Shown piece after piece: positions 2,488-55,531 of a DNA stretch of 64,000 nt. The notes under the pieces are model-generated. The model ran no database searches, was not told where the DNA came from, and saw only the letters and a program-made list of their open reading frames with translations. The position numbers and the translations under genes were made by a program. This DNA comes from Bacillota bacterium (lineage in GTDB: Bacteria > Bacillota > Clostridia > Christensenellales > UMGS416). Each line of letters opens with the position of its first letter. Position 1 is the first letter of the stretch. Location: positions 30,219 through 94,218 of the forward strand of contig JAEZSC010000186.1 of NCBI GenBank assembly GCA_023422005.1, written 5' to 3'.

Positions 2488-2525
2488 TTGCATGGGCGAG
2501 CAGGGGGCACAGTCCCCGACCAGCC
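2488..2525. repeat. 38-nt conserved-flank/variable-hairpin module, copy 1
   Basis: ttgcatgggcgagca-GGGGG cacag TCCCC-gaccagcc. Same flanks as the copies at 29240, 51659 and 55482. Confidence 0.7.
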
Positions 2526-2573
2526 TGTCGCCGCTGAAAGCGGCGAGCAGCGCCATCCGCAAAGGAGAGTCAA

Positions 2574-2990
2574 GTGAAATCCTTCCGCAAAGAATTAACC
2601 TTCAGCATCCCCCAACGGCGTGCTTACGTGAACATCACCGGGCAGGTGCAGCGCTGCATCGATGAATCCGGCATCCGCGAGGGGCTGGTGTTGGTCAACG
2701 CCATGAACATCACCGCCAGCGTGTTCGTGAATGACGACGAGTCCGGCCTGCACCAGGATTTCGAACGCTGGCTGGAGACGCTGGCCCCAGAGAAACCCCA
2801 CAGCCAATACCGCCACAACGGCTTTGAGGACAACGCCGACGCCCACCTCAAGCGCCAGATCATGGGCCGCGAGGTTGTGGCCGCCGTGACGGCGGGCAAG
2901 CTGGATTTTGGCACCTGGGAGCAGATCTTCTATGGAGAATATGACGGCAAGCGCCCCAAGCGGGTGCTGGTCAAGATCATAGGGGAATAG
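2574..2990 (+). CDS. YjbQ/UPF0047 family protein (secondary thiamine-phosphate synthase-like)
   Basis: GTG start 5 nt after AAAGGAGAG. Sequence ...[23 protein letters not shown]...[12 protein letters not shown]..., characteristic of YjbQ. Confidence 0.8.
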
Positions 2991-3039
2991 GCTCATATGG
3001 CGGCTGAAAGCCGTTCACATGGACCACGGAGGTGTGACC

Positions 3040-3648
3040 ATGGACAGGCGCAAGCGCATGGGAATCGTGGCGGCTTTGCTGCTGGTCGCCGCTATGCTGG
3101 CATCCTGCGAGCCGCCCGCAAAGCCTATGCAAACGGTGGAGGCCCTTGCCGAGCCGGTGGAATATTCCGAATTCAACCGGCTGATCGACAGCTCGGACAT
3201 CGTTGTGGTGGGCCGCGTGGTCGGGCCTGGCCAATCGATGGATGCCTTCGCGTTGATGTCGCCCGAAGAAAAGAAAGAGCATGGCATCTCCGACGACAGG
3301 AATTCCCCGATTACCGTGTACGACGTTCAGGTGATGGACTGTTGGAAGGGCGGCTTCGCCAAGGGTGAACGCATCCAGATGTATCTGAGCGGGGGCACAT
3401 GGGACAACGTGTATTATACGGACAACACGATAAAGGACTTTCAGCCGGATCGTGACTATATGCTGTTCCTGGCCAGGCCGATCGTGAAGAGCCTGGGCTA
3501 TTACATGGTCAACTCTACGACCCAGGGCATCGTGGCGGTGGAAGGGGAACGCGTCAAGGACCGGCGAGGCAACCCATGGCTGTTGACCGGGCAAAGCCTG
3601 GACGAAGCCAAACAGGCCTTCCTGCGAGCGCAGGAGGAAGCCCCTTGA
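3040..3648 (+). CDS. Putative lipoprotein, unknown function
   Basis: ATG 3040 lies 7 nt after GGAGG. MDRRKRMGIVAALLLVAAMLASC gives a signal peptide plus lipobox (LASC). No recognisable domain. Confidence 0.55.
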   Translation: MDRRKRMGIVAALLLVAAMLASCEPPAKPMQTVEALAEPVEYSEFNRLIDSSDIVVVGRVVGPGQSMDAFALMSPEEKKEHGISDDRNSPITVYDVQVMDCWKGGFAKGERIQMYLSGGTWDNVYYTDNTIKDFQPDRDYMLFLARPIVKSLGYYMVNSTTQGIVAVEGERVKDRRGNPWLLTGQSLDEAKQAFLRAQEEAP

Positions 3649-3684
3649 ATCGATAGGATCCTATGCTTACAGGAGAATTTCAAC

Positions 3685-4209
3685 ATGGATACGAGCGCTT
3701 ATTTCCTGACCCGGCCCGACGCCGCCGACCGCGAGGACGCCCGGGCCTTCAAGCGGGAGTTCCTGAGCTGCGGGGAGTTCATACAGGGGAGCTGCCTGTG
3801 GCTGGAATATGAGGACTATGACCGCTGGCTCAAATGGCTGGCCGACAGCGAGGCCAGCCGGGTGCCCGAGGGGCGCATCGGTTCCACGACGCTGTTCACG
3901 TGCCGCCGCAGCGACGGGCGCATCGTTGGCATTGTAGACATCCGCCATTCCTTAAGCCCTTTTCTGCTGGAGCGCGGCGGCCACATCGGCTACAGCGTGC
4001 GCCCCAGCCAGCGCCGGCAGGGCGTGGCCACAGCCCAATTGGCGTTGGCGCTGCAGGAATGCCGCAAGCTGGGGATCGACCGCGCGCTGGTCACCTGTGA
4101 CAAGCACAACCTGGGCTCCGCCCGCACGATACAGAAGAACGGCGGCGTGCTGGAGAATGAGGTCGGGGAAGGGAATGAAGTGATACAGAGGTATTGGATA
4201 CAGCTGTAG
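3685..4209 (+). CDS. GNAT family N-acetyltransferase
   Basis: GNAT acetyl-CoA motif region GYSVRPSQRRQGVATAQLALAL and a C-terminal NLGSARTIQKNGG. Confidence 0.75.
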   Translation: MDTSAYFLTRPDAADREDARAFKREFLSCGEFIQGSCLWLEYEDYDRWLKWLADSEASRVPEGRIGSTTLFTCRRSDGRIVGIVDIRHSLSPFLLERGGHIGYSVRPSQRRQGVATAQLALALQECRKLGIDRALVTCDKHNLGSARTIQKNGGVLENEVGEGNEVIQRYWIQL

Positions 4210-4266
4210 AGGGATTGCTGCCGGCATAAGTGTCATACTGGCATAGGGAACAAAGTCGTATGATGG

Positions 4267-4890
4267 TTGGAGGATATAAGCATCGTGGATGGTATAAGCT
4301 CCTGTCTTTTCCTGGTGCCGGCGGTGATGGTTGTCTCGCTTCTTTGGTTCCTTTTCAGAAGAGCCCGGATTTCGAAGGCTGTTTTCCTGAACAATGTGCT
4401 GCTGATCCTTACTGTCGTTGTCATTATGGACAAAGTATTTTTTCCGCTCCCCTTGTCCGCCTCGGAAATTGAAAACATGAGGTTGGGGTCGGCCAATTTG
4501 CCTGGTTATAATCTCGTCCCCTTCCATACGATCGCCTCTCAGTTGGCCGGGAGCGTATCCGCAAGGTGGGCGTTCATACAGCTCGGCGGCAACATTGTGC
4601 TGTTTATTCCCTTAGGCTTTCTGATCACGTGGAAGCTGTTTCAGCGGAACAACAAGATAAACGCGCTCAAGACGATTGCCTTATGTGCGGTATCTTCAGC
4701 GTTCGTGGAAGCTGTTCAGCTTCTGTTGTCATTCGCTTATGGCTATGCATACAGGTTCGCCGACATCGATGATCTTTTTCTGAATACGTTTGGTGGGGCC
4801 TTGGGGGTTGCAGCCTTTGTTGTCTCGCTGCCGCTGGTCAAAGCGTGGTTGTATAAGTCGGGGAAACCCGTGGCGAGCAATCTCTCATAG
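4267..4890 (+). CDS. VanZ family membrane protein
   Basis: Multi-TM protein with NLVPFHTI and GNIVLFIPLGF motifs typical of VanZ-like proteins. Start uncertain (TTG 4267 or internal). AT-richer codon usage than its neighbours. Confidence 0.65.
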   Translation: MEDISIVDGISSCLFLVPAVMVVSLLWFLFRRARISKAVFLNNVLLILTVVVIMDKVFFPLPLSASEIENMRLGSANLPGYNLVPFHTIASQLAGSVSARWAFIQLGGNIVLFIPLGFLITWKLFQRNNKINALKTIALCAVSSAFVEAVQLLLSFAYGYAYRFADIDDLFLNTFGGALGVAAFVVSLPLVKAWLYKSGKPVASNLS

Positions 4891-4904
4891 AAGGGGTTAT
4901 TCAA

Positions 4905-5471: not shown

Positions 5472-5572
5472 ACCGAATGGCTTAATCGAATTGTAAACAA
5501 GTTGGCATCATTTTGCACTTCCCCCTGTTTTCGGGTATACTCCTAGCATCCCAAAACGCCGGAGGCATCCAC

Positions 5573-7642
5573 TTGCCCTTTCTCCCCGTAACAAAAGAAG
5601 AAATGACCGCCCTGGGCTGGGACCGGCCGGATTTCGTGTACGTGTCCGGCGACGCCTATGTGGACCACCCGAGCTTCGGCCACGCCATCATCAGCCGCGT
5701 GCTGGAGAAGGCGGGCTTCCGCGTGGCCATGCTGCCCCAGCCGGATTATAAGAGCAAAGCCGACTTCCTGCGCTTCGGCCGGCCCAGGTTGGGCTTTCTG
5801 GTCAGCGCCGGGAACATCGATTCCATGGTCAACCACTACACCGCGGCCAAGAAACCGCGCAGTCAAGACTTTTATTCTCCGGGCGGTAAGGCCGGCGTCC
5901 GGCCGGACCGAGCCACCATCGTGTATTGCAACCGCATCCGCGAGGCCTACCGCAACATCCCCATCATCATCGGCGGCCTGGAGGCCAGCTTGCGCCGCTT
6001 TGCCCACTATGACTATTGGGACGACGCCGTGCGCCGCTCGATATTGACCGATTCCGGGGCCAACCTTTTGAGCTTCGGCATGGGTGAGCGCTCCATCGTA
6101 CAGATCGCAAAGCTTATGGACCGCGGCGTGCCTGTGACCAGCCTGCAAACCATACCCGGCACGTGCTGTGTGGTGGAAAGCCCCGAAGAGGTCGAGGGCA
6201 TCGTGCTGCCCGCGTGGGACACCGTGCGCCACGGCGGCATGGACTACGCCAGGACATTCAAAACGATCATCGAGCAGCAGGACGCCGTGCGGGGCAAGCG
6301 GCTCATCCAGCAGCAGGACCGCGCCTTTGTCGTGCAAAACCCACCCGCGGCCCCTTTGAGCCAGAAGGAGCTGGATGACGTCTATGAGTTGCCCTACATG
6401 CGCGCGGCGCACCCGATGTATGCCGCGGCAGGCGGCGTGCCGGCCCTGGCGGAGGTGGAGTTCTCGCTGACGTCCTCCCGGGGGTGCTACGGCGGCTGCT
6501 CCTTCTGCGCGCTGACCTATCACCAGGGCCGCGTGGTGCAGGCCCGCAGCCACGAAAGCCTGCTGCGGGAGGCGCGCATCCTGATCGCCCAGCCGGGCTT
6601 CAAGGGCTACATCCACGATGTGGGCGGGCCCACGGCCAACTTCCGCTCGACAGCATGCGAGCACCAGAAGGAGCACGGCGCCTGCGCCCACCGCCAGTGC
6701 CTGTTCCCCAAGCCCTGCGAGCGCCTGCAGGCCGACCACAGCGACTATCTGGCCCTGCTGCGGCAGCTTCGGGCGCTGCCCGGCGTCAAGAAGGTGTTCG
6801 TGCGCTCGGGGCTGCGGTATGATTATCTGCTGCACGACCCCCACGGCGACGCCTTTTTGCGGGAGCTGTGCGAGCACCACATCAGCGGGCAGCTCAAAGT
6901 AGCCCCGGAGCATGTCGCAGACCGGGTGCTGCGGGCCATGGGCAAGCCGGGGTTTGACGTGTACCGGCGCTTCCAGGAGCGCTACCGGGAGCACAACCGC
7001 CGCCTGGGTCGGGAGCAATACCTGGTGCCGTACTTCATCTCCTCGCACCCCGGCAGCACGCTGCAAGACGCCATCGAGATGGCCGAGGCCATGCGGGACC
7101 TGGGCATCCACCCCGAACAGGTGCAGGATTTCTACCCCACGCCGGCCACGGTCAGCACATGCATGTATTTCACGGGCATCGACCCACGCACGCTCAAGGC
7201 CGTGCACGTGCCCCGGGGGGAGGAGCGGCGCATGCAGCGGGCTCTGCTGCAATATGGCCGCCCGCAGAACCATGCCATGGTGCGCAAGGCATTGCAGACC
7301 GCCGGCCGCGAGGACCTGATCGGCTTTGGCCCCAAGTGCCTGGTACGCCCGCAGGCATTGCGGGATGGCACTGCCCCCGGCTTGCGCAATGTCGGCTATG
7401 CCGCAATGCCGGCCGCCGCAAAAAGCGGCGAGCGTCGCTGCGAAGCAGCGAAGGATGTCCCGCGCGCCCCGGGCAAGTCGGCTGCGCCCAAACCCTCAAA
7501 ACCCGGTAAGGGTAAACCGCCGAAAGGCGCAGCCTTGCCCAAACCCGGCAAGGGGAAAGCCGCACCCAAGGCAGGCAAGCCGGGCAAGGCCCAACTTGCC
7601 AAGGCCAAGCCCGGCGCGGCCCCCAAGAAGGGCAGACGGTAG
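5573..7642 (+). CDS. YgiQ family radical SAM protein (UPF0313) with Lys/Pro-rich C-terminal tail
   Basis: LPFLPVTKEEMTALGWDRPDFVYVSGDAYVDHPSFG matches the YgiQ N-terminus. Radical SAM motif CYGGCSFC. I prefer TTG 5573, 7-8 nt after GGAGG, over the track start at 5513. Confidence 0.85.
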   Translation: MPFLPVTKEEMTALGWDRPDFVYVSGDAYVDHPSFGHAIISRVLEKAGFRVAMLPQPDYKSKADFLRFGRPRLGFLVSAGNIDSMVNHYTAAKKPRSQDFYSPGGKAGVRPDRATIVYCNRIREAYRNIPIIIGGLEASLRRFAHYDYWDDAVRRSILTDSGANLLSFGMGERSIVQIAKLMDRGVPVTSLQTIPGTCCVVESPEEVEGIVLPAWDTVRHGGMDYARTFKTIIEQQDAVRGKRLIQQQDRAFVVQNPPAAPLSQKELDDVYELPYMRAAHPMYAAAGGVPALAEVEFSLTSSRGCYGGCSFCALTYHQGRVVQARSHESLLREARILIAQPGFKGYIHDVGGPTANFRSTACEHQKEHGACAHRQCLFPKPCERLQADHSDYLALLRQLRALPGVKKVFVRSGLRYDYLLHDPHGDAFLRELCEHHISGQLKVAPEHVADRVLRAMGKPGFDVYRRFQERYREHNRRLGREQYLVPYFISSHPGSTLQDAIEMAEAMRDLGIHPEQVQDFYPTPATVSTCMYFTGIDPRTLKAVHVPRGEERRMQRALLQYGRPQNHAMVRKALQTAGREDLIGFGPKCLVRPQALRDGTAPGLRNVGYAAMPAAAKSGERRCEAAKDVPRAPGKSAAPKPSKPGKGKPPKGAALPKPGKGKAAPKAGKPGKAQLAKAKPGAAPKKGRR

Positions 7643-7724
7643 GGCCGGCGGTGCCGCGTTGCGGCTCTATTTTCTTTCCATAAAAATGATATTGTGGTGT
7701 ATAATAACTCAGAGGTGATCGCGT

Positions 7725-8540: not shown

Positions 8541-8554
8541 TTGGGGGATTCCAT

Positions 8555-9256: not shown

Positions 9257-9477
9257 AAGAAGAGTAAGAGGCCGACCGCCGATTGATTCGGCGGGAGGAA
9301 ATGGGAATAAGCAGAACGAAAAAGTAAAAACCCGCTCGCAGGCGCTTGGCGACATGTCCGCAAGGGAATTCGATTGCGGATTGCCGGTCGGCCCACAGGA
9401 CGATGCAGCGGCGGGCGACCAGAGATGCCGGAACAGGGAGGCTAAATCGCCAAGGCGCCACAGCGCCGAAGGCGAAA
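9257..9477. repeat. Mosaic GC-rich intergenic repeat element (shares modules with 51486-51654)
   Basis: Modules gaagaa..gccgaccg, gcgggaggaaat...aaaaacccgc.c.caggcg and aatcgccaaggcgccacagcgcc recur in the same order at 51486-51654. Confidence 0.6.
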
Positions 9478-11183: not shown

Positions 11184-11444
11184 CAGGGCACTCGTCCTTC
11201 TGCCCGGAATTTATATAGAATTTCTGCAAGATTTTTTTCCCAAAGTGCCAGGCGTTCGAGCAATTGCCTGGCATTTTGCGCCTCTTCTTGTGGATAATGC
11301 AACTTTTTGCCGTGAAAGACACAACAGGTGCCACCCATCGCCAAAGTTGGCGAATATTGTAATACGCAAAAAAGAACTTGCAAATCGCACTTATTGGTGC
11401 TACTTTATATGCAAAGATGAGAACGGCTCAAAGCCTTGATCATC

Positions 11445-11527
11445 GACAAAGGTAAACCTGCTGAAAGGCAGCGACACAAAGCTACAGGGCCTACGGGCGA
11501 AAGCCTATGGCAGCCAGTTGCCGAAAG
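11445..11527 (+). promoter_or_regulatory. c-di-GMP-I (GEMM-I) riboswitch aptamer, copy 1
   Basis: aaaGGUAAACC-ugcuGAAAggcag-CGACACAAAGCuacaGGGcc...GAAA...ggCAGCCAGUUGCCGAAAG matches the GEMM-I consensus GGCAAACC..GNRA..GACGCAAAGC..CAGCCGGUUGCC. The G-C/U-A pairs replace Vc2 G21-C46/C22-G45. Confidence 0.8.
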
Positions 11528-11866: not shown

Positions 11867-11873
11867 GGGCACC

Positions 11874-11956
11874 GATAATAGTAAACCTGCCGAAAGGCAG
11901 CGACACAAAGCTACAGGGCCTACGGGCGAAAGCCTATGGCAGCCAGTTGCCGAAAG
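11874..11956 (+). promoter_or_regulatory. c-di-GMP-I (GEMM-I)-type riboswitch aptamer, copy 2 (A at the position-20 equivalent)
   Basis: 11881-11956 is 75/76 identical to 11452-11527. The single change, U to C, makes the P2 stem CUGCC-GAAA-GGCAG perfect. The 5' flank differs (aauaGUAAACC). Confidence 0.8.
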
Positions 11957-12745: not shown

Positions 12746-12851
12746 GGTGGAGAGGGGGAAGGGGCGATGAGCCCATAAAGCGCGGTCGGAATAAACCCAT
12801 ACATATCATGGCACAAACACGAACCGAAAAGAAAACAGAAGGAGTGCAGTC

Positions 12852-13025
12852 ATGAAAAACGTCGTCAAGCTGTTCAAGAGCGAAGAAGGACAAGGCATGG
12901 TGGAGTACGGCCTGATCATCGCGCTGGTGGCCGTGGTGGCCATCGTGGGTCTGGCGCTGCTGGGCCCCAAGATCAAGGAAATGTTCACGAACATCGCCGG
13001 CAAACTGAACGCCAACCCGACCTGA
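12852..13025 (+). CDS. flp: Flp/Fap family type IVb pilin, copy 1 (57 aa)
   Basis: Below the ORF-track size cutoff. My translation: MKNVVKLFKSEEGQGMVEYGLIIALVAVVAIVGLALLGPKIKEMFTNIAGKLNANPT. Flp processing motif G/MVEYGLI; GAAGGAG RBS. Confidence 0.85.
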   Translation: MKNVVKLFKSEEGQGMVEYGLIIALVAVVAIVGLALLGPKIKEMFTNIAGKLNANPT

Positions 13026-13057
13026 CGCGGAAACCGCAGAAAAAGAAGGAGATTGTC

Positions 13058-13231
13058 ATGAAAAACATCGTTAAGCTGTTCAAGAGCGAAGAAGGCCAGG
13101 GCATGGTGGAATACGGCCTGATCATCGCGCTGGTGGCCGTGGTGGCCATCGTGGGTCTGGCGCTGCTGGGCCCGAAGATCAAGGATATGTTCACGAACAT
13201 CGCCGGCAAACTGAACGCCAACCCGACGTAA
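13058..13231 (+). CDS. flp: Flp/Fap family type IVb pilin, copy 2 (57 aa)
   Basis: MKNIVKLFKSEEGQGMVEYGLIIALVAVVAIVGLALLGPKIKDMFTNIAGKLNANPT. AAGGAGA RBS. Two substitutions relative to copy 1. Confidence 0.85.
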   Translation: MKNIVKLFKSEEGQGMVEYGLIIALVAVVAIVGLALLGPKIKDMFTNIAGKLNANPT

Positions 13232-13266
13232 GCCCAGAACACCGAATAAGCGAAGGAGAGACTGTT

Positions 13267-13440
13267 ATGAAAAACATCGTCAAGCTGTTCAAGAGCGAAG
13301 AAGGACAAGGCATGGTGGAATATGGCCTGATCATCGCGCTGGTGGCCGTGGTGGCCATCGTGGGTCTGGCGCTGTTGGGCCCGAAGATCAAGGAAATGTT
13401 CACCAACATCGCCGGCAAGCTGGACGCCAACCCGACCTGA
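13267..13440 (+). CDS. flp: Flp/Fap family type IVb pilin, copy 3 (57 aa)
   Basis: MKNIVKLFKSEEGQGMVEYGLIIALVAVVAIVGLALLGPKIKEMFTNIAGKLDANPT. AAGGAGAG RBS. Confidence 0.85.
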   Translation: MKNIVKLFKSEEGQGMVEYGLIIALVAVVAIVGLALLGPKIKEMFTNIAGKLDANPT

Positions 13441-13462
13441 CGCAGATTAGCGGGTTTGCTGC

Positions 13463-18409: not shown

Positions 18410-18410
18410 C

Positions 18411-26187: not shown

Positions 26188-28452
26188 CTATAAACCTTCT
26201 TTCCTTCGTTCCGCTGCGACGAAGGCCTGGCCCAGGGCCAAGCCGCCGTCGTTGCACGGCACGGCGTTGTTGGTGTACACGCTGAAACCGTCCTGAACCA
26301 AAAGCACCCGAAGGGTGCGCAGCAGCAGCGCGTTCTGGAACACACCGCCGGTCAGCGCGACGGTGTTTACGCCCGTCTGCTCCCGCACGCGGCGGCACAC
26401 CCGGGCTGCGGCCCGCGCCAGCGCCCGGTGAAACCCGAGGGGCTTCGCCCCCTTTGGCCGTTTCTGTTGGGGTTGTGGATCGTTCAGCAGTTCCGCGATG
26501 ACTGGCCGGTGATCCAGCAACAGCAGGCCGTCCTGCTCCAGTATATCAAATTCCATTGGGGTTTCCGGTATCCCCAGCGACAATGCCTCTGCCGCGGCGG
26601 TTTCCAGCGCCACGGCGCACTGGCCCTCGTAGCCGTTGGTATCGCATAAGCCCAGCAGCATAGCCGACGCGTCAAACAGGCGGCCCAGGCCGCTGTAGCG
26701 GGCGGTGTTCACACGGTTGGCGATGGCTGCCCGCAGCAGATCGGCCCCCTCGAAGCTCAGCTTGTCGGGGGCTTCGCCCCTTCCTGCGGCATGTAAATAG
26801 GCAAGAGCAGCTTTTCTGGCGTCCCGCGCGGCGCTGTCGCCGCCGGCCAGCTCCACCGGCAGCGCGCTGCCCACGCGGCGGTATGCCGCGCCTTCACACA
26901 GCAGGAATTCCCCACCCCATATGGAGCCGTCGTCGCCGTAGCCGGTGCCGTCGAAGGCCAGGCCCAGCACCGGCCCGTGCAGGTGGTGCTCGGCCATCAC
27001 CGAGGCCACATGGGCATGGTGGTGCTGCACCTGCACAAGGGGAAGGCCGGTGCGCCGGGCAAAGGCGCTGGAGAGATAGCCCGGATGCAGATCGCACGCG
27101 CCCAACTCCGGACGGATGCCGAACAGCCGCTGCATGTGCTCATAATTGGCGGCGTAGGCATCGGCCACGGCCTCCACCTCGAAGTCGCCAAAGTAGGAGC
27201 TCAGATAGGCCGAGCGGCCCCGCAGCAGGCAGAAGGCCGACTTCAAGTCGCTGCCGAACCCCACAATGGGTGTGGGGGATGCCTGCTGAAGCTCGACCGG
27301 CAGCGGCGCGTAACCCCGGGCGCGGCGGCTGGGCTGCGGGCCCAGGGCGGTCACGCGGGCCACCGAATCGTCCAGCCGGGTTACGATGGGCCGGTCGTGA
27401 TGCAGCACTCCGTCCAATGGACCGTCCGTCGTCAGCCATGCCAGCATCTCGTCGTCCCGGTGGATCTCCGGTTGGCCGCTGCGGTTGGCGCTGGTCATCA
27501 CGAGCGCGCCGAGGGGTTCCAGAAGCAGCGCCTGCACCGGCGCGTAGGGCAGGAATGCCCCTGTCAAAGGTGTATCCCCTAGCGTCGGAGCGAAGGGCGC
27601 ACCCACGGTCTCCAATAATGCGATCGGCCGGGCGGGGGAGCGCAGCAGCGCTTCCTCGCCGTCGGAAGCCTCGCAATATTTCCTCAGAGTGTCCATGTCT
27701 CGGAACATCACGGCGAAGGGCTTCTGTTCTCTGTGCTTGAGCTCCCGCAGGCGGCGTATGGCCCTGTCGTCGAAGGGACTGCACGCCAGGTGATAGCCGC
27801 CGATGCCCTTGACCGCGACGATGCCGCCGGCCTGCAGCGCGGCGATGGCCCGCTGCAGCGCGTCCTCCCGCTTCCAGGTGAGCCCTTGCTGATCCGTGTA
27901 GCCCAGCACCGGCCCGCACACGGGGCACGCGATGGTCTGCGCGTGGAAGCGCCGGTCGGTTGGATCGTCGTATTCACGCTGGCATTCGGGGCACATGGGA
28001 AAGCTCGCCATGGACGTGGTCGCCCGGTCATAGGGCGCGCCGGTCAGTATGCTGTAGCGCGGGCCGCACACGGCGCAGCTGATGAAGGGGTGCCGGAAGC
28101 GCCGGTTGTGGGGGTCGAAGAGCTCCCTCTCGCAATCCGGGCACATGGGCAGGTCGGCGGACAGCAGGTCCACCGCGCCGCCGGCACTGGTTTGGATCGT
28201 AAAGGAAGATAAATCCTCATCGGGGATGACTTGCGTGGCGATGTGGGTGATGCGGGCCTGGGCCGGAGCCTCGGCGCGCAGTGCGGCCAAAAAGGCGTTC
28301 AAGGCGGCTTGGTCGGCGTTGAGCAGCAGTTCCACGTTGCTGCCCACGTTGCGCACCGTGCCGCCAAGCGCGAAGCGCGCCGCCAGGCGTGCCAGCAGCG
28401 GGCGCATGCCCACACCCTGTACAACGCCTTCGATGGAAACCCGGAAAGTCAT
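26188..28452 (-). CDS. hypF: Carbamoyltransferase HypF
   Basis: N-terminal acylphosphatase-like domain, two Zn-finger pairs (CPDCERE...CAVCGPRYS; CPECQREY...CPVCGP), and YrdC and Kae1-like regions. Confidence 0.9.
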   Translation of the reverse strand: MTFRVSIEGVVQGVGMRPLLARLAARFALGGTVRNVGSNVELLLNADQAALNAFLAALRAEAPAQARITHIATQVIPDEDLSSFTIQTSAGGAVDLLSADLPMCPDCERELFDPHNRRFRHPFISCAVCGPRYSILTGAPYDRATTSMASFPMCPECQREYDDPTDRRFHAQTIACPVCGPVLGYTDQQGLTWKREDALQRAIAALQAGGIVAVKGIGGYHLACSPFDDRAIRRLRELKHREQKPFAVMFRDMDTLRKYCEASDGEEALLRSPARPIALLETVGAPFAPTLGDTPLTGAFLPYAPVQALLLEPLGALVMTSANRSGQPEIHRDDEMLAWLTTDGPLDGVLHHDRPIVTRLDDSVARVTALGPQPSRRARGYAPLPVELQQASPTPIVGFGSDLKSAFCLLRGRSAYLSSYFGDFEVEAVADAYAANYEHMQRLFGIRPELGACDLHPGYLSSAFARRTGLPLVQVQHHHAHVASVMAEHHLHGPVLGLAFDGTGYGDDGSIWGGEFLLCEGAAYRRVGSALPVELAGGDSAARDARKAALAYLHAAGRGEAPDKLSFEGADLLRAAIANRVNTARYSGLGRLFDASAMLLGLCDTNGYEGQCAVALETAAAEALSLGIPETPMEFDILEQDGLLLLDHRPVIAELLNDPQPQQKRPKGAKPLGFHRALARAAARVCRRVREQTGVNTVALTGGVFQNALLLRTLRVLLVQDGFSVYTNNAVPCNDGGLALGQAFVAAERRKEGL

Positions 28453-29108
28453 TTTGCTCCCCGGCGGGCCAGCAGCCAGCGGACAACTGCGTCATAGCCT
28501 TCCTTGGTCTTGCCGCTGACCGGGAACAGCGGCGCCTGGGGGTTCACCGCCCGCAGGCCTTTGGTGAAGAAGTCCAGGTCGAAATCCACATAGGGGATCA
28601 GGTCGCACTTGTTGAGCAGGATCAGGTCGGCCTTCTCGAAGGCCAGCGGATATTTGTATGGTTTATCGCTGCCCTCGGTCACGGTCACGATCAGCAGCTT
28701 CAGGTGTTCGCCGATGTTAAACTCAGCGGGGCATACGAGGTTGCCCACGTTTTCCACAAAAAGCCAGCTGCCGTCGGCCAGCTTCAGCGAATCGGCGGCC
28801 TGCTCTATGACCCAGGCGTCCAGATGGCAGGCCCCCTGGGTGTTGATCTGCTGGGCGGACACGCCGTGTTCGTCCAGCTTCCGGGTGTCGATGTCGCTCT
28901 CGATGTCGCCCTCGATGACCGAGACATTACGGCTGCCCAACTGCTCGATCAGGTTCAGCAGGCTGGTGGTCTTGCCCACGCCCGGCGCGCCCAGCACGTT
29001 TACGGCGAAGATGTCGCGGCGGTCGAAGTCGGCGCGAAGGCGGTCGGACACGCGGTCATTCTCGGTGGCGATTTGTTCCATCACGGGAACCTTGATGACT
29101 TCTTTCAT
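28449..29108 (-). CDS. hypB: Hydrogenase nickel-incorporation GTPase HypB
   Basis: P-loop GAPGVGKTT, ENVGNLVCP and NKCDL G-motifs. 4-nt overlap with hypF. Confidence 0.9.
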   Translation of the reverse strand: MKEVIKVPVMEQIATENDRVSDRLRADFDRRDIFAVNVLGAPGVGKTTSLLNLIEQLGSRNVSVIEGDIESDIDTRKLDEHGVSAQQINTQGACHLDAWVIEQAADSLKLADGSWLFVENVGNLVCPAEFNIGEHLKLLIVTVTEGSDKPYKYPLAFEKADLILLNKCDLIPYVDFDLDFFTKGLRAVNPQAPLFPVSGKTKEGYDAVVRWLLARRGAK

Positions 29109-29239
29109 GGGTTTCTGGCTCCTGTCCAGATCATTTACAAATCTACTTTTAAGTTGGCTTCCCCTCGAGGGGAAGCTGTCACCGAAGGTGACTGATGAGG
29201 TGGCTTTTTCTCATCCGGTGTGATGCGCCATCTTCCAGG

Positions 29240-29277
29240 TTGCAGGGGCGAGTAGGATGTACAGCATCCGACCAGCC
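29240..29277. repeat. 38-nt conserved-flank/variable-hairpin module, copy 2 (inside the hypA-hypB spacer)
   Basis: ttgcaggggcgagta-GGATG tacag CATCC-gaccagcc. Confidence 0.7.
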
Positions 29278-29298
29278 CTCTTGAGCGGAAGGCAATGG

Positions 29299-29649
29299 CT
29301 ATGTTTCTTTCTCCACTTCTATCGATTCGATCAGCAGTTCGCGGCCCACGTCGGTGGGTTCGCCGTCCACGCCGCAGGCGGGGCAGTCGAAGCGGAAGAG
29401 CCGCCGCTCGAAGAGCTGCCCGCAACTGGGGCAGCGCAGCTTGGGCTTCACACGGCGGATGTCCAGACGAGCGCCGGCGCACAGCGTGTCGCCGGCGATC
29501 AGGTCGAAATACATCTGTATCGAGTCCGGCACGTAGCCACTCTGATCGCCCACGACCAGCGTGATGCGTCGCACCCTGGCGGCGCCGTTGGCCCGGGCGT
29601 GCTCCTCAGCTGTCTTTATGATCGCTTTCACCAGCGGGTACTCGTGCAC
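29299..29649 (-). CDS. hypA: Hydrogenase nickel-insertion protein HypA
   Basis: A GTG start at 29649 yields the canonical Ni-binding N-terminus M-H-E (MHEYPLV). Zn site CPSCG...CPACG. The track start at 29661 would add MCSP. Confidence 0.85.
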   Translation of the reverse strand: MHEYPLVKAIIKTAEEHARANGAARVRRITLVVGDQSGYVPDSIQMYFDLIAGDTLCAGARLDIRRVKPKLRCPSCGQLFERRLFRFDCPACGVDGEPTDVGRELLIESIEVEKET

Positions 29650-29974
29650 GGGTGAACACATCCTTTACCGGCTCGCTGGAGGGAGTCGTGTAGTCGGGTC
29701 GCATGGCCAGGCACTTCTTGGGGCATACCTCCACACAGGCGTTGCACTGCACGCAGCGCATGCGCTGGATGGACCACATAAGGTCGGCCTTTTGCACCTC
29801 GATGGCGTTGGCCGGGCAGCGCCTCTGGCAGATGCCGCAATGGATGCACGCGTCGATGTCGATCTCGATGTGGCCGCGAGTGCGCTCGTACACCTTGGGT
29901 TTCTCGGCGGGGTAGCGCACGGTGGCGGGCTTGCCCAGCAGGCTTTTGAACAGTGTTTTTCCGATCTTGAACAT
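29606..29974 (-). CDS. echF: Ech hydrogenase 2x[4Fe-4S] ferredoxin-like subunit (EchF/NuoI-like)
   Basis: Two CxxCxxCxxxCP motifs: CIHCGICQRRCP and CVQCNACVEVCP. Confidence 0.8.
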   Translation of the reverse strand: MFKIGKTLFKSLLGKPATVRYPAEKPKVYERTRGHIEIDIDACIHCGICQRRCPANAIEVQKADLMWSIQRMRCVQCNACVEVCPKKCLAMRPDYTTPSSEPVKDVFTRARVPAGESDHKDS

Positions 29975-46935: not shown

Positions 46936-47176
46936 AGCCTCTTTCGCTGCGCTTTCGCCTTCGGCGCTGTTGCGCCTTGGCGATTCAGAAGACTTGCATG
47001 TTGTCTGGTTTCCCGCCTGTCGATAACCGTCGGCAGGCGGGCTTTTTGCTGTTTTGGCCCATTCTCCGGGAAAGGAAAACGGGGACCGCTGAGGCGGGGA
47101 TTTAGTGTGCGGTTCTGTCTGGTTGCTCGTTACCTTGGCCGGTTAAACCGGCCGGCAAAAGGTATGCGTCATTGCA

Positions 47177-47266
47177 AGCCCTCTCTCCCAACCTCTCCCC
47201 CAGAGGGGGAGAGGTAAAGTTACATAAAAGTCCCTCCCCCTCCGGGGGAGGGTGCGGGAGAGGGCT
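47177..47266. repeat. 90-nt nested-palindrome element (GGGAGAGGG family), copy 1
   Basis: The outer arms agccctctctcc and gggagagggct enclose hairpins cctctccccc-aga-gggggagagg and ccctccccc-tcc-gggggaggg. Confidence 0.7.
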
Positions 47267-47613
47267 TGAGAGGCGGAAAGGATGAGTAAAGGTTCACCAA
47301 GGAGAATGGTGTTTTTGGCCTGTAAATGAAGAGGCTACTCCATAGGTCACATACTGGCATAAACTTTCAAAGATAGTGCCGAAGGTTTCCAAAGGGCGAC
47401 CGGAGACCTTTGGTCGCGCCCGATGGCACTGCCCCGGCTTGCGGCAACGTCGGCTCTGCCGATGTGAGAGCAAGCCGATAGTTGCGCAAGGCGCAACGAA
47501 GGTCGCGAAATCCTTTTGCATATTTATTGTTGCTCCCTACAGATGGAGCGTGATAAGATTCGATAAACTATAGCGCAAATCCATGTAGGCTAGGCATAGA
47601 CGAGGGATTCACT

Positions 47614-51375: not shown

Positions 51376-51646
51376 GGCGAATCCCTCCTGTGCGAGTCTG
51401 GGAATAGTATACCGTACATGGAAACGTTATTACATGATGATCTGGTATTATCTAGACAATCGGCTTGCCCAAGAACTCCTTATGTGAAGAATAGCAGGAA
51501 GCCGACCGACGGTTTATCCCTGTCAGGAAATGCGCTTGCGCATTTCCGGTCGCCCGCAGGCGAGACGCGGGAGGAAATAGAAAACGAGCAATGGATGGAT
51601 ACAAAAACCGCCCACAGGCGAAAAACGTTTGAATCGCCAAGGTGCT

Positions 51647-51704
51647 ACAGCGCCCAGGATGCAGGGGCGAGCAGGGGCCGAAGGCCCCGACCAGCCGCAG
51701 GCGA
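51647..51704. repeat. 58-bp repeat, left copy of a perfect inverted pair (contains hairpin module copy 3)
   Basis: acagcgcccaggatgcaggggcgagcaggggccgaaggccccgaccagccgcaggcga. Its exact reverse complement lies at 55474-55531. Confidence 0.9.
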
Positions 51705-51710
51705 AGGGCG

Positions 51711-52157
51711 TTAGCCCTCCAGGGCGCCGCCGTGGAAGGCACACTCGTACACCGCCACACCGTCGCGCTCGATGATCTCGTAGCCATAGAACCAATCGAT
51801 ATCACCTTTGGTGCTGCAGCGGTAATGCAATGTGCCTTGCGCAAATTCGGCGGGACCCCGCCACGGCGCTTCCGGCGTGCCCAGCAGCAGCGCGGCCTTC
51901 AGGAAGTCGCCGTCAAAACCATCCGCCAGCACACGGCCCAGGTAGTTCATGGCCCACACCGGCCGGCCTGCGACATAAAGGGCTTCCTCGCCGGCAAAGC
52001 GCGCGCCGCCCAGATAGGTATCCAGGTAACTCAGATCTCCTTCGGAATAGGCCAAGTCGTGGGATTGGGGGCGGGAGGGCTGGGTTTGCGGCCCCTTGCC
52101 GGCGTAGGTGGCTCGCTTGGCGCGCAGCAAAAAGTCGATGTGGTCACGGGTCAGCAT
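51711..52157 (-). CDS. DUF5680 domain protein
   Basis: ATG 52157 (MLTRDHIDFLLRAKRATYAG...YLDTYLGG..FAGEE...PVWAMNY.GRVL...CAFHGG) matches the DUF5680 pattern as I recall it. Confidence 0.6.
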   Translation of the reverse strand: MLTRDHIDFLLRAKRATYAGKGPQTQPSRPQSHDLAYSEGDLSYLDTYLGGARFAGEEALYVAGRPVWAMNYLGRVLADGFDGDFLKAALLLGTPEAPWRGPAEFAQGTLHYRCSTKGDIDWFYGYEIIERDGVAVYECAFHGGALEG

Positions 52158-52245
52158 GGCGAAATCCCCTTTCTCAGGCGTTGCTTGTTCTTTGGTCTGT
52201 CCGTCATTATAATGATTGCGTTCCATCAACAATCCGGGAGGCGTT

Positions 52246-53697
52246 ATGCTGAGCATCCGTTCCCGCACGCTGACGGCGCTGACGCTGGGCTATCTGGCCC
52301 TGCCGGTGGCGCTGTTCCTGTGCGGCTGGCTCAAGATATGGCTGGGCATACCTGTGGCGGCGCTGCTGGCGCTGGCCGTGGTTTGGCATGTGCGCGGCGA
52401 GGACGCCGGCGACGCCGTGGAGCTGGGCCGTTGGCCGGCGGCGTTGGCGATGCTGGCGGCGCTGGCGCTGTGGGTGTTCCTGAGCGGCCAGGGTGGCTAC
52501 TTCTACCAGAGCTACGACCACCACTGGCGCAATGCGATTTTCCATGATCTGATCGACCAGCCGTGGCCGGTGCGCTATGAGCAGACCGGCGCGGCGCTGG
52601 TCTATTATCTGGTCTACTGGCTGCCGGCGGCGGCGGTGGGCAAGGCCTTTGGCTGGGCGGCGGCCAACGCGGCGCTATACCTGTGGAGCCTGCTGGGCGT
52701 GGGCCTGTGCGCGCTGCTGCTGCTGCGGGAGCTGCAAGCCCGCACCTTGGGCGAGCGTCTGCTCATCGTGGCGGCGCTGGCGCTGTTCAGCGGCCTGGAT
52801 GTGCTGGGCATGGCCATGCAGCAGATGTCCACTGGCCGGGCCAACTGGCAGCACCTGGAGTGGTGGGCGGGGTATTACCAGTTCTCCAGCAATTCCACGC
52901 AGCTGTTCTGGGTGTACAACCAGACCGTGGCGCCGTGGCTGGCTACGGTGCTGCTGCTGCGGCAGCGCCGGGCTGGCGGCATGGCGCTGCTGTGCGCGCT
53001 GACTCTGCCCTATGCGCCGATGCCCTTCGTGGGCCTGCTGCCGCTGGCGTTGGCCCAGGTTGTGCGGGCGCTGCGGGGCAGGGCGCGGGACTTTTGGCCC
53101 TGGCTGCGGGGCGCGCTGGAGCCGCAGACCGCTGCGGCGCTGGCCATCGGCATCGTGTTCGCGCTGTACTTCTCCAGCAACGCCGCCGCCGGGTCCGGGC
53201 GCAGCCCGTGGTTCTGGGCAAGCGCGCAGCCGCTGTGGGCGGCGGTCTCGATGTACGGGTTCTTCCTTCTGCTGGAGGTCGGCGTGCCGCTGCTGGTGTT
53301 GTGGCACTGCGACCACCGGCAGCCCATGCTGCGGGCTGTGGCGGCAACGCTGGCTTTGTGCCCGCTGTTTGCCGTGGGCCAGGCATCGGATTTTTGCATG
53401 CGCGCCAGCATACCGGCGCTGATGGTGCTGATGGTGCTGTGCCTGCGGGCGCTGCTGGACGCCCGGCGTGTTCGCAGGTTCCGGCCGGCCATCGTGGCGC
53501 TGGCGCTGTGCCTGCTGTTGGGCGCAGCCACGCCGCTCACGGAAATCAAGCGCGGCGCGCTGGCCGTGGCGCAGGCGGGGCGGTTGGGCCTGGTGGCCGA
53601 CGACATCGGCACCCTGAGGGATAAGGTCGACGATTTCGACAACTTCCTTGCCTTCAACGCCCGGGAGCGTCCATTTTTTCGCTACCTTGCACGGTGA
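52246..53697 (+). CDS. Polytopic membrane protein, unknown (possibly glycosyltransferase/polymerase-like)
   Basis: ATG 52246 follows GGGAGG. At least 12 predicted hydrophobic helices. Conserved-looking loop GGYFYQSYDHHWRNAIFHDLI. Confidence 0.55.
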   Translation: MLSIRSRTLTALTLGYLALPVALFLCGWLKIWLGIPVAALLALAVVWHVRGEDAGDAVELGRWPAALAMLAALALWVFLSGQGGYFYQSYDHHWRNAIFHDLIDQPWPVRYEQTGAALVYYLVYWLPAAAVGKAFGWAAANAALYLWSLLGVGLCALLLLRELQARTLGERLLIVAALALFSGLDVLGMAMQQMSTGRANWQHLEWWAGYYQFSSNSTQLFWVYNQTVAPWLATVLLLRQRRAGGMALLCALTLPYAPMPFVGLLPLALAQVVRALRGRARDFWPWLRGALEPQTAAALAIGIVFALYFSSNAAAGSGRSPWFWASAQPLWAAVSMYGFFLLLEVGVPLLVLWHCDHRQPMLRAVAATLALCPLFAVGQASDFCMRASIPALMVLMVLCLRALLDARRVRRFRPAIVALALCLLLGAATPLTEIKRGALAVAQAGRLGLVADDIGTLRDKVDDFDNFLAFNARERPFFRYLAR

Positions 53698-54853
53698 GGG
53701 CGCCCAGATAGACGCTGAAGTCCTTCAGTGCCCGGCGGCAGGCGGCCAGTGTGGCCCGGTCGGGCTGCACGTCTGGCTCCCACCACCAGTTCAATATGCT
53801 TAGCTCTTTGGTTTTCCTGTTGAAGCGCGGCTCCATGCGCGCCACGAAGCGCTCTCCGCATAGCACCGGCAGCACATAGTAGCCATATTGACGCTGCTGC
53901 GCAGGCTTGTAGACCTCCCACGTGTAGTCGAAACCGAACAGCTCCCGGATCAGCTTGCGGTCCCACAGCAGGTTGTCCAGCGGCGCCAGAAAGGCAGCTT
54001 CGGCCCTGACGGCCTCGGGCTGTTCCAGCGCTGCCCGCAGCGTCGGCTGGTCCTGGGCGCGCACATAGCACGGCGCGGGGATGCCCTCCACGTCCACAGA
54101 CAGCAGGCGGCCCTCGCCGGTCAGCCGTTCGAAGGCCGCCGAACGCGCGCCGGCTTTCAGGCCCCCGTGGATGCCCAGCCACGCGTCGGAGGCCCGGTTG
54201 GCCAGCAGGCCCACGGAGCCCACCCGCCGGTGCACGTGCCAGGCGTAGTAGTCGTCCTCGCTTGTGTTCGGGTCCGGCGCGGCCAGCAGGTCCGCGGGCA
54301 GGTGCCGGCAGGCCAGGTCGTAGAACTTGCGCGTGCCGGCCTTATGGTGCACGACCAGCTCGCCCCAAAAATACAGGCTCTCCAGGCACGCGCGGGAGGC
54401 GTTGGTCGACCCCCACGGCCAGTTCACCTTTTCTCCGGGTTCCAGGTCGCCGGAGCACAGCGGGCCCCGGGTCGCCACCTCGGCGCGCACGTCGTCCAGC
54501 ATGGGCACGTGGGCGCGGCCCTCGTGGCCGTACCACTGCCGGGCGTCCTCCCGGTACCGCGCGAAACATGGCCAGTCTTCGACCGGGTAAATTGCGAGAT
54601 TCTTGTCAAAGGCGTCCACCAGCGCGCGGTCCCGGTAGAGAAGCTCATCCAGCAGCGCCGCCCGGTAGCCCTTCATGCGGCTCTGCAGCACCAGGTGGGG
54701 GTTGGGGCCCACCATGTCCAGCGGGTCGAACTGTATGCAGCCGACCTTGCGCACGAAATCCAGCGCTCCCGCCTTGCCCCGCAGCGCGCGGGGCGGCAGC
54801 AGGTTCTGGTGCCGCAGCAGGAAGCGTCGGGCTTGCACCTTTGTGAGAACCAT
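53654..54853 (-). CDS. YcaQ/AlkZ-like winged-helix DNA glycosylase (DUF1006)
   Basis: ATG 54853. MVLTKVQARRFLLRHQNLL...ALDFVRKVGCIQFDPLDMVGPNPHLVLQSR is the characteristic YcaQ N-terminus. Confidence 0.8.
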   Translation of the reverse strand: MVLTKVQARRFLLRHQNLLPPRALRGKAGALDFVRKVGCIQFDPLDMVGPNPHLVLQSRMKGYRAALLDELLYRDRALVDAFDKNLAIYPVEDWPCFARYREDARQWYGHEGRAHVPMLDDVRAEVATRGPLCSGDLEPGEKVNWPWGSTNASRACLESLYFWGELVVHHKAGTRKFYDLACRHLPADLLAAPDPNTSEDDYYAWHVHRRVGSVGLLANRASDAWLGIHGGLKAGARSAAFERLTGEGRLLSVDVEGIPAPCYVRAQDQPTLRAALEQPEAVRAEAAFLAPLDNLLWDRKLIRELFGFDYTWEVYKPAQQRQYGYYVLPVLCGERFVARMEPRFNRKTKELSILNWWWEPDVQPDRATLAACRRALKDFSVYLGALTVQGSEKMDAPGR

Positions 54854-55005
54854 GTTCGCATTCCTCGTACAATTGATTGCCCCATTATAGTGTATATACG
54901 ACCCTTTGTCAAAGCGGTTACATGGCGGTATAATGAACCCGGCGCGGCGCCGGCCGCTGCTGCACAACCTCAACAGTTGCTCACGCACAAAAAGGAGGAA
55001 CCGCC

Positions 55006-55413
55006 ATGCTGACCCATCTGGCCCACATCGCTTTGGGCGTCTCCGACATGGAAAAATCCCTGGATTTCTACTGTGGCCTGCTGGGCCTGACCAAGGCCTT
55101 CGAGCTGCATGACGACAACGACCAGCCGTGGATCATCTACCTGAAGATCAGCGACGGCCAGTTCATCGAGCTGTTCTACAACGCCAAAGGCCCCGTGGAG
55201 CCCTATTGGGGCAAGGCCGGCTACCAGCACTTCTGCTTCGGTGTGGACGACATCTGGGCCTTCACCGAGCGCCTGCACAGCCGCGGCCTCTATCTGGACA
55301 AGAACCCGACCATGGGCAAGGATACCAACTATCAGATCTGGGTGAAAGATCCCGATGGCGTGGACATCGAAATAATGCAGCTGGAGCCTACGTCTCCTCA
55401 GGCAAAAGCATAA
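55006..55413 (+). CDS. VOC family protein (glyoxalase I-like)
   Basis: LAHIALGVSDMEKSLDFYCGLLGL...HFCFGVDD...DPDGVDIEIMQ: the paired beta-alpha-beta-beta-beta VOC pattern. Confidence 0.85.
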   Translation: MLTHLAHIALGVSDMEKSLDFYCGLLGLTKAFELHDDNDQPWIIYLKISDGQFIELFYNAKGPVEPYWGKAGYQHFCFGVDDIWAFTERLHSRGLYLDKNPTMGKDTNYQIWVKDPDGVDIEIMQLEPTSPQAKA

Positions 55414-55473
55414 AACACTGCAAACGGGATGCTGCGGCATCCCGTTCATCGTGTCGACAAAGACGCCACGCTG

Positions 55474-55531
55474 TCGCCTGCGGCTGGTCGGGGCCTTCGG
55501 CCCCTGCTCGCCCCTGCATCCTGGGCGCTGT
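55474..55531. repeat. 58-bp repeat, right copy of the perfect inverted pair (hairpin module copy 4)
   Basis: tcgcctgcggctggtcggggccttcggcccctgctcgcccctgcatcctgggcgctgt is the exact reverse complement of 51647-51704. Confidence 0.9.

Follow-up and report, generated by a model that had tools for sequence, protein, structure and literature searches.

A 64,000-nucleotide (nt) stretch of DNA from a Bacillota bacterium (contig JAEZSC010000186.1 of assembly GCA_023422005.1, positions 30,219 to 94,218; hereafter the window) carries four copies of a 42-nt imperfect palindrome, whose 22-nt core also occurs in other Bacillota, in Spirochaetota and in one Geobacteraceae bin (at least 118 loci). As a whole, this motif family is probably best explained as a set of very small, non-autonomous mobile palindromic DNA elements resembling repetitive extragenic palindromes (REPs); that the element as such is a mobile REP-like palindrome is, on the sequence evidence, very probable. 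Comparisons of filled and empty sites, of strains and of host genomes showed that insertion takes place in discrete units of 42 nt (or 46 nt), mostly directly 3' of YC/CC, and that copies survive where they are tolerated: in spacers, at gene 3' ends, in RNA loops, within other repeats and in frame in proteins. They also showed that single copies come and go and that their decay exceeds that of their flanks.

Copies of the element in the window

A search of the window with the pattern TGCADGGGCGAGYA-N15-GACCAGCC yielded four matches, at 2489-2525(+), 29241-29277(+), 51660-51696(+) and 55482-55518(-), against 0.03 expected, and 0 of 100 dinucleotide-preserving shuffles reached this number. A covariance model (R1), built from 63 copies that all lie outside the window, assigned 55-63 bits (E about 1e-14 to 1e-16) to the same four copies and 12 bits to its runner-up match, a gap that indicated that the window holds exactly four. 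The four 38-nt repeats of the original prediction, which had been made from the letters of the window, were therefore real. Their proposed extent covered the core copies but was slightly short, as the inserted unit measures 42 nt (C-NGGW + TGCAKG + GGCGAGCA + hairpin + GACCAGCC). The copies, and one doubtful relative, are:

2484-2525, plus strand: copy 1, 42 nt, CAGGT-TGCATG-GGCGAGCA-GGGGGCACAGTCCCC-GACCAGCC, R1 score 62.6 bits
29236-29277, plus strand: copy 2, 42 nt, hairpin GGATGTACAGCATCC, core variant GAGTA
51655-51696, plus strand: copy 3, 42 nt, hairpin GGGGCCGAAGGCCCC, located after ...ACAGCGCC inside a second small palindromic repeat
55482-55523, minus strand: copy 4, 42 nt, same sequence as copy 3
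9402-9422, plus strand: possible hairpin-deleted remnant GATGCAGCGGCGGGCGACCAG, uncertain

Copy 1 is flanked by a DUF218 gene (1759-2457, +) on one side and a YjbQ/UPF0047 gene (2574-2990, +) on the other. Copy 2 lies, as had been predicted, in the 190-nt spacer between hypA (29299-29661, -) and hypB (28449-29108, -). Since both genes are on the minus strand, their transcript contains the reverse complement of the motif as it was originally written. Copy 3 is situated 15 nt downstream of the stop codon of a minus-strand DUF5680 gene (51711-52268). Relative to transcription, copy 1 is in the forward sense and copies 2-4 are in the reverse sense. With their flanks, copies 3 and 4 form a 69-nt inverted repeat (partner 51636-51704, 96% complementary, 3769 nt apart); copies 1 and 2 share only 45 nt.

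The relative without a hairpin that had been proposed at 9391-9422 fared less well: R1 was silent there at E<=10, and the pattern, which was formulated post hoc, occurred in 3 of 100 shuffles. This stretch may be a hairpin-deleted remnant of the element or may reflect chance. Besides copy 2, the hypA-hypB spacer (29109-29298) contains three more hairpins (GATGAGAAAAAGCCACCTCATC, GTCACCTTCGGTGAC, GCTTCCCCTCGAGGGGAAGC), which are missing from relatives with overlapping hypA and hypB genes; the HypA protein of the window is 18 residues shorter than that of these relatives.

Anatomy and covariation

On the forward strand (here the strand on which the motif was originally written), the consensus consists of (Y)C followed by C-NGGW-TGCA(T/G)G-GGCGAGCA, a hairpin of 13-21 nt and GACCAGCC. 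The variable hairpin usually comprises 6 bp and a G-N-A triloop, and a hairpin of 15 nt gives a unit of 42 nt. In a flank logo of copies without a neighbouring copy, C was found at -6 in 86% and at -5 in 91%, a pyrimidine at -7 in 78%, G at -3 in 97% and at -2 in 99%, and A or T at -1, while conservation ended at +2. The conserved 5' flank noticed in the window thus extends, across the family, to CCNGGW. When folded, the fixed flanks pair with each other. The lower stem on the reverse strand, GGC-U-GGU-C...U-GCU-C-GCC, comprises three G-C pairs, a U.C mismatch, the pairs G.U, G-C and U.G and a C.U mismatch, after which the variable upper stem begins. The whole element is thereby a single 14-bp imperfect hairpin with an 11-12-nt single-stranded tail (CCNGGW-TGCAT).

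The hairpins of the window copies were as originally described, each with one additional closing pair (6 bp and the triloops ACA, ACA and GAA), and the two compensatory pairs reported between copies 1 and 2 were real. The covariation also held outside the window. When 63 distinct copies from other genomes were aligned without gaps, 97.4% of the cells were paired, with 117 double-change cells compared with 31 ± 7 in shuffles, and slid registers also fell far short. In that set and in one of 135 distinct copies that included diverged ones, with 97% of cells paired, none of 500 shuffles reached the observed upper-stem covariation, and each of the four central upper-stem pairs showed 24-67 double changes. 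Among the 135 copies, the two outermost lower-stem pairs showed compensatory changes from GC to CG, UA and AU, and the lower-stem G.U pair was occasionally G-C in diverged copies. Folding energies of single copies were not unusual relative to shuffles (z from +1.3 to -2.4); the case for structure consequently lies in covariation and not in stability. These data agreed with the earlier view that the motif is a structured non-coding repeat with a covarying hairpin and not decayed coding sequence.

Forward-strand loops were mostly G-N-A or G-N-N-A (GAA 23, GCA 8, GGA 7, GTA 6, GTCA 7), which are classic stable DNA mini-hairpin loops; only 6 of 18 G-N-N-A tetraloops were of the RNA-favoured GNRA type. 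The core contains the palindromic words CCNGG and, in about half of the copies, ATGCAT. Two other assignments of conserved parts were ruled out. A CsrA-binding GGA motif does not fit about half of the copies, in which GGT or GGC stands at that place, and in a P1 helix CCNGGW/CCAGCC the W and N positions show no covariation with their partners.

Distribution and arrays

Species-representative genomes were scanned with the core pattern, and the host range and copy numbers from this biased sample are lower bounds. As the scan demanded an exact core, invariance of the core is partly built in; diverged copies with a non-exact core do occur. Most host genomes are metagenome-assembled genomes (MAGs), and gene calls were based on simple open reading frame (ORF) rules. 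Among the matches listed, Clostridia MAGs included Oscillospiraceae, Ruminiclostridium, Acetivibrionales, Hungateiclostridiaceae, Lachnospiraceae, Defluviitaleaceae and Vallitaleaceae. Isolate hosts comprised at least five Paenibacillaceae (Cohnella and Paenibacillus), including the complete chromosome of Cohnella sp. WGS1546 (NZ_CP171108.1), and Spirochaetota were represented by at least ten MAGs. Further carriers include the Vallitaleaceae chromosome OY782500.1 and long contigs from Salinispira and Oceanispirochaeta. The Geobacteraceae match is a single 2-kb contig and may be a binning error. Proteins encoded in the window had identical matches in LEMO22 metagenome scaffolds and in the MAG assemblies GCA_023435775.1, GCA_023427805.1 and GCA_023434065.1; the source of the window is a GC-rich Bacillota population.

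Copies occurred singly or in head-to-tail arrays of 2-7 units with a period of 41-47 nt and stereotyped linkers, (CC)NGGW, of 4-6 nt, of which 5 nt was the commonest. Inverted close pairs were present (L021, L056 and L095; loci and contigs outside the window are designated by L and a number), with solo units and direct tandem arrays predominating. Adjacent units of an array may carry different hairpins (L070, L036, L091), which fits repeated insertion beside a resident copy better than simple duplication.

Genes flanking the copies were unrelated housekeeping genes, and an all-against-all BLAST of 538 nearby ORFs revealed no recurrent family, nor did Pfam in the 148 nearest ORFs (top 25 families). 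Rfam 15 placed no family over any copy at the gathering threshold in the window and 26 loci, and nothing on the element at E<=10 in three array-bearing loci; at E<=5 around L021, one spurious match of a miRNA precursor to the inverted pair was obtained. Elsewhere in the other loci, Rfam detected a T-box, tmRNA, group II introns and similar families, none of which overlapped the element. A synthetic 3-unit array used as a BLAST query had no match in plasmids and phages, and IMG/VR gave only eight contigs. With no insertion sequence (IS) or transposase adjacent to the copies, the element did not, as far as could be tested, represent the terminus of a known IS, the possibility named at the outset as refuting. 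Searches of the literature by sequence, in both orientations, gave no match, and concept searches returned only general literature on REPs and on the tyrosine transposases associated with them (RAYTs). A tRNA-like origin was ruled out, the window being devoid of tRNAs.

In Cohnella and Paenibacillus (L015, L022, L037, L041, L045, L059, L063, L065, L074, L081, L096, L115) the hairpin is nearly fixed (GTTCGCCGTCAGGCGAAC), and a conserved composite, ...TTCATCCAACCTTCC - element - TYGGTGCTGAAAACCGGACTTTTTG..., surrounds the element in different species. At L059 the element lies 63 nt downstream of a T-box leader.

Filled and empty insertion sites

Sites with and without the element were compared in a repeat of about 250 nt from other genomes and in the second small palindromic repeat of the window:

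About 250-nt repeat, site 1: empty CATATC-TCCCGCC-TCGTTGAAAC (L101; L035:7138-7165); filled by 42 nt after TCC, TCC^CGCC (L021, L035)
About 250-nt repeat, site 2, 3 nt downstream: same empty sequence; filled by 46 nt after TCCCGCC, TCCCGCC^TCG (L109 twice, L067)
About 250-nt repeat, site 3: empty CATTACC^TCAGC; filled in L021
Second small repeat of the window: 9447-9475, plus strand, intact (empty) copy TCGCCAAGGCGCCACAGCGCCGAAGGCGA, two matches in the window against 0 expected
Second small repeat of the window: 46955-46983, minus strand, second intact copy, from the same search
Second small repeat of the window: both intact copies read ...CAGCGCC followed by GAAGGCGA; 42 nt are added in copies 3 and 4 (CAGCGCC^GAAGG)
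About 250-nt repeat, with coordinates: L021:1150-1450, L035:2300-2560 and 7050-7250, L101:5770-6090
About 250-nt repeat, further loci: L067, L089, L091, L108, L109 (two copies), L012

Four of the six filled/empty comparisons fitted a unit C-NGGW...GACCAGCC placed directly 3' of YC/CC, and the repeat in L091 carries two units. A unit ending in CC would explain both the commonest linker of 5 nt (C-NGGW) and the period of 42 nt.

Clostridia MAGs contain the repeat of about 250 nt in several copies per genome, and elements occupy two or three preferred sites within the repeat. Its ends are TATAACGAGGC...CGTTATAA, it contains an internal long-range complement AACGAGGC/GCCTCGTT and it corresponds to no Rfam family; it may be a miniature inverted-repeat transposable element (MITE) or a structured RNA. 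The second small repeat of the window, TCGCCAAGGCGCNACAGCGCCGAAGGCGA, has an outer stem TCGCC/GGCGA and an inner hairpin GGCGC-NACA-GCGCC. It is interrupted at 51636-51704 and 55474-55542 by copies 3 and 4, resulting in a mosaic of nested mini-repeats like that of bacterial interspersed mosaic elements (BIMEs).

Turnover between strains

Comparison with strain contigs identified one larger block that varies as a whole:

55448-55550: 103-nt block with copy 4 and the interrupted second repeat, missing from strain contig L137

Contig L137 (GCA_023434065.1) reads ...GGGATGCTGCGGCATCCCGTTT directly followed by TTTCCAAGC. In the window, the block separates the stem of a terminator-like hairpin of a glyoxalase gene from its T-run. 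Between the window and L134, the block differed at 7 of 103 positions compared with 3 of 203 in the flank (p=0.034). Similarly, copy 1 showed 4 substitutions in 44 nt relative to strain contigs L119 and L121, compared with 1 in 107 nt of flank (p=0.026). In L130-L132, whose HypA is 92% identical, hypA and hypB overlap, with neither spacer nor element, and L133 has a different, 85-nt hypA-hypB spacer without the element; the HypA relatives are named Anaerovoracaceae. A further contig, L138 (JAEZLQ010000213.1, 3512 bp), spans nearly exactly the interval from copy 3 to copy 4 and ends at both inverted copies. The repeats appear to break short-read assemblies.

Insertions in proteins and structured RNAs

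Calling of the longest ORFs placed 70 copies inside ORFs, which mostly reflected over-extension of start codons; a case was retained only where domains or homologues flanked the copy on both sides. The reverse transcriptase (RT) of a group IIC intron on a Spirochaetaceae contig (L007) aligned end to end with the solved GsI-IIC RT (PDB 6ar1, E=1e-120) and with PDB 7uim, except for a 14-residue insert, LVRNFVSCSAMHPC, between YVRG and WMNYY, and the 42 nt encoding this insert are one element. In a YyaL-like protein on a Hungateiclostridiaceae contig (L052), residues 7-359 corresponded to residues 8-350 and residues 387-713 to residues 350-668 of 7tkv, which is contiguous across the gap; the 28-residue insert between them consists of two tandem elements (GLVADGVNCSPMHP twice). 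An in-frame copy thus adds about 14 residues to a protein. A tubulin-like ORF (L116) and a DUF5717 ORF (L040) also harbour in-frame copies, here in forward orientation. Intragenic copies occurred in both orientations and always as multiples of 3 nt, which indicates that they are read through and not removed; an RNA-level mini-intron cut from mRNAs was ruled out by the same observation.

Structured RNAs were also invaded. Besides the copy in frame in the maturase domain, the L007 intron carries another one in domain IV, located upstream of the RT start. At L080, which carries tandem c-di-GMP-I-type riboswitches at 3527-3667 and 3755-3852 (-), a diverged element fills the apical loop of the second hairpin of the first riboswitch (c-di-GMP-I-GGC), whose aptamer still scored 63 bits, above threshold. 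Group II introns adjoin or surround copies at L007 (about 1786-3709, +) and L002 (1877-1952, -), and mobile introns could ferry the element between genomes.

Proposed mechanism and alternative explanations

In the proposed mechanism, the fixed lower stem with its mismatches and the tail would together form the site at which a trans-acting enzyme recognises the folded single strand. Among enzyme types, a nuclease-ligase of the HUH/Y1 type, similar to RAYTs or to the TnpA of IS200/IS605, would be the best candidate. This assignment is favoured by the asymmetric 5' tail, by the lack of a clear target duplication and by the G-N-A and G-N-N-A loops on the forward strand, and is made tentatively, by analogy and with rather less than even confidence. 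As the element ends in ...GCC, a new copy could land behind a resident one, which would give arrays with linkers of 4-6 nt and mixed hairpins. The enzyme or the elements may have been exchanged between anaerobic Bacillota and Spirochaetota, and any effect on mRNA, for instance in the hypA-hypB spacer, would be a by-product. A more far-reaching proposal, to which only slightly less than an even chance is given, is that of a new superfamily of 42-nt mobile hairpins with a code of its own (mismatched lower stem and CCNGGW-TGCAKG tail) that spans Bacillota and Spirochaetota, possibly also Desulfuromonadota, and is served by a dedicated trans-acting enzyme. This enzyme would not necessarily be a classical RAYT and could be a new hairpin-specific nuclease-ligase or recombinase. 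If so, 14-residue peptide insertions in proteins and extra hairpins in introns and riboswitches would be a side effect of its activity.

Several observations weigh against the favoured explanation, that of mobile REP-like elements moved by an HUH/Y1-type enzyme. A scan for HUH...Y motifs with a crude regular expression found no match in the ORFs of 139 loci and the window (about 1.1 Mb of flanks). A gene of the RAYT type would be expected beside only about 1% of copies. A Pfam search of the 148 nearest ORFs (top 25 families) showed no enrichment of a transposase or mobile-element family. Replication-strand bias was absent, local GC skew of the forward strand being positive at 50 and negative at 59 loci, although pieces of 8 kb make this a weak test. 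The best lower stem, with its G.U/G.T pairs, is on the reverse strand, and the G-N-A loops are on the forward strand. Two of the six junctions (L007, L052) did not cleanly fit insertion 3' of CC. The shared run of C residues makes every junction ambiguous by 1-3 nt, and a 40-nt insert with a 2-nt CC duplication is equally compatible with the junctions as a 42-nt insert. Moreover, some copies ride in larger repeats: the 103-nt block of the window, the repeat of about 250 nt in MAGs with the prefix OH_ and the composite of Cohnella.

Such larger repeats raise the question whether the 42-nt unit is not itself mobile and instead forms a module or terminus of larger MITE- or IS-like elements that move. 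Copy 4 is polymorphic as part of its 103-nt block, copies 3 and 4 share 69 nt, the element has a fixed place in the repeat of about 250 nt in OH_ and Oscillospiraceae MAGs, and the Cohnella copies lie within another conserved composite. Precise insertions of 42 or 46 nt alone were, however, observed: the RT and YyaL-like genes contain them, and so do two adjacent sites of the repeat of about 250 nt. Copies of this repeat that are empty at those sites exist in another MAG and elsewhere in one of the genomes with filled sites, and window copies 1 and 2 have no more than their 45 nt in common. This explanation is the least probable of those considered. The core, identical over 22 nt across phyla and containing palindromic words, could also be a host-domesticated DNA site, bound by a nucleoid-associated, gyrase- or integration host factor (IHF)-like protein, as in BIMEs, or by a recombinase, with its copy number maintained by the host. 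Secondary roles of this kind have been reported for REPs of Escherichia coli (PMC5581495). Against a host function, the identity of the core was a condition of the scan and decayed copies exist; the insertions in ORFs, introns and riboswitch loops resemble selfish spread, and the copies show no positional regularity with respect to genes. A domesticated site is therefore considered unlikely.

The remaining alternative holds that the element is first of all a strand-specific structured RNA, selected at each locus for stabilising mRNA, for processing by RNase or as a signal in translation or termination. It corresponds to one side of the original prediction, which had left open whether the motif was a REP-like DNA element, a protein-binding site or an RNA stability or processing signal. 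In the window, three of the four copies follow closely downstream of genes, and the strand transcribed there is the better-pairing reverse one, which forms G.U pairs where the other has mismatches. About 20 copies outside the window lie, in reverse orientation, 7-50 nt upstream of a start codon, with CCNGG extending into the Shine-Dalgarno sequence. Between co-directional flanking genes, by contrast, the forward strand was sense in 18 and antisense in 22 cases, and copies were found between divergent genes (13) as well as between convergent genes (9). The random orientation towards both transcription and GC skew makes a strand-specific RNA role unlikely. Also inconsistent with it are the intragenic copies, which are always in frame and hence translated through in both orientations, the gain and loss of copies between strains, their substitution rates above those of the flanks, the tetraloops, which are mostly neither GNRA nor UNCG, and the lack of an Rfam match. 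This alternative is accordingly judged highly improbable. What remains of the original prediction is a non-coding, structured repeat whose hairpin covaries between fixed flanks, with REP-like as the best label; a primary role in RNA stability or processing does not.

Other repeats in the window

The only Rfam families detected in the window were two tandem c-di-GMP-I riboswitch aptamers, at 11441-11525 and 11870-11954 (+), which scored 75 and 73 bits, share 94% identity and do not overlap the element. They are followed, at 12849-13446, by three tandem 183-nt repeats with a spacing of 206-209 nt and 92-95% identity. The same genome has a further dispersed family of hairpins, a 78-nt repeat (47193-47270 and 55967-56044, also 47175-47268; 73% identity) composed of two hairpins rich in G/C, CTCTCCCCCAGAGGGGGAGAG ... 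TCCCTCCCCCTCCGGGGGAGGG. Two inverted repeat pairs, 43451-43490/47365-47404 (40 nt, 85%) and 24890-24922/47440-47472 (33 nt, 91%), converge in the intergenic region at 46.9-47.5 kb, which looks like a repeat-rich hotspot.

Implications

REP-type elements are understood almost only from Proteobacteria, in GTAG-tagged, RAYT-linked families. With its different tag, its cross-phylum core, its clean filled and empty sites and the insertions that proteins, a group II intron and a riboswitch tolerate, the present family offers a tractable handle on how mini-elements move, on the enzyme involved, on cross-phylum exchange in anaerobic communities and on indel variation in proteins and RNAs. In practical terms, copies break metagenome assemblies, arrays can create spurious ORFs and unmasked copies could pass for regulatory RNAs. 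Covariance model R1 can be used for masking or for a census of copies.

Comparison with known systems

Some array-forming systems bear only a superficial resemblance to the element. A CRISPR array was ruled out, as linkers measure 4-6 nt and are not unique spacers of 25-50 nt. A ToxI-like type III antitoxin array was ruled out because flanking genes are unrelated, no toxin family is enriched and most copies are solo. The attC sites of integrons are likewise imperfect palindromes, in which the outer parts are fixed, the centre varies and unpaired bases are conserved, and are recombined as folded single strands, whereas the element has linkers of 4-6 nt and lacks R''/R' core sites (RYYYAAC/GTTRRRY), cassette ORFs and an integrase context. 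Compared with MITEs, the lower stem would pass for terminal repeats of 8 nt and a 2-nt CC duplication is possible, but nothing at the 3' end corresponds to the 11-nt 5' tail, and no parent IS was found in the plasmid and phage searches or among the nearest ORFs.

Rickettsia palindromic elements (RPEs) share with the element the survival of palindromic selfish DNA as in-frame peptide insertions in conserved proteins. RPEs are restricted to Rickettsia, measure about 100-150 nt and are unrelated to the element in sequence; the element has a third of their size, and each unit contributes only 14-16 residues. Like IS200/IS605 elements and palindrome-associated transposable elements (PATEs), it combines a hairpin with adjacent single-stranded bases and appears to insert beside a short specific sequence (here 3' of YC/CC) with no clear target duplication. 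It differs from them in possessing one hairpin instead of distinct left-end and right-end hairpins and in its length of 42 nt versus hundreds. It shows no detectable replication-strand bias of the kind seen for IS608-type elements and has no TnpA or TnpB nearby.

The closest likeness is to the REPs of Proteobacteria, which RAYT (TnpA_REP) transposases mobilise, and to their composite forms, BIMEs and REPINs (REP doublets forming hairpins): an imperfect palindrome of 35-45 nt whose lower stem is fixed and whose mismatches are conserved, as is the short tail at its 5' foot, present in many copies that are mostly extragenic and occasionally intragenic, that form singles, arrays and inverted doublets and that vary between strains. 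By analogy with REP/RAYT systems, the folded single strand is probably recognised by an enzyme in trans. In REP/RAYT systems and for the TnpA of IS200/IS605, cleavage is directed by a tetranucleotide that lies at the hairpin's 5' foot (PMC3733652; PMC5581495), and a GTAG or CGTC tetranucleotide tag defines the two described REP superfamilies in a survey that mentions no Firmicutes or Clostridia (PMC3733652). The element carries instead the tail CCNGGW-TGCAKG, and its consensus, CCNGGW-TGCATG-GGCGAGCA...GACCAGCC, contains neither GTAG nor CGTC on either strand. No RAYT was found beside any copy in the 139 loci and the window by the crude motif scan. A REP family is typically confined to one species or genus, whereas the core of the element is common to at least two phyla, and, in contrast to REPINs, the element occurs mainly solo or in direct tandem arrays and not as inverted doublets. 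Because both the GTAG/CGTC tag and the REPIN doublet arrangement are lacking, the 42-nt hairpins are classified as a new family or superfamily of the REP-like kind rather than as a member of the RAYT-REP group.

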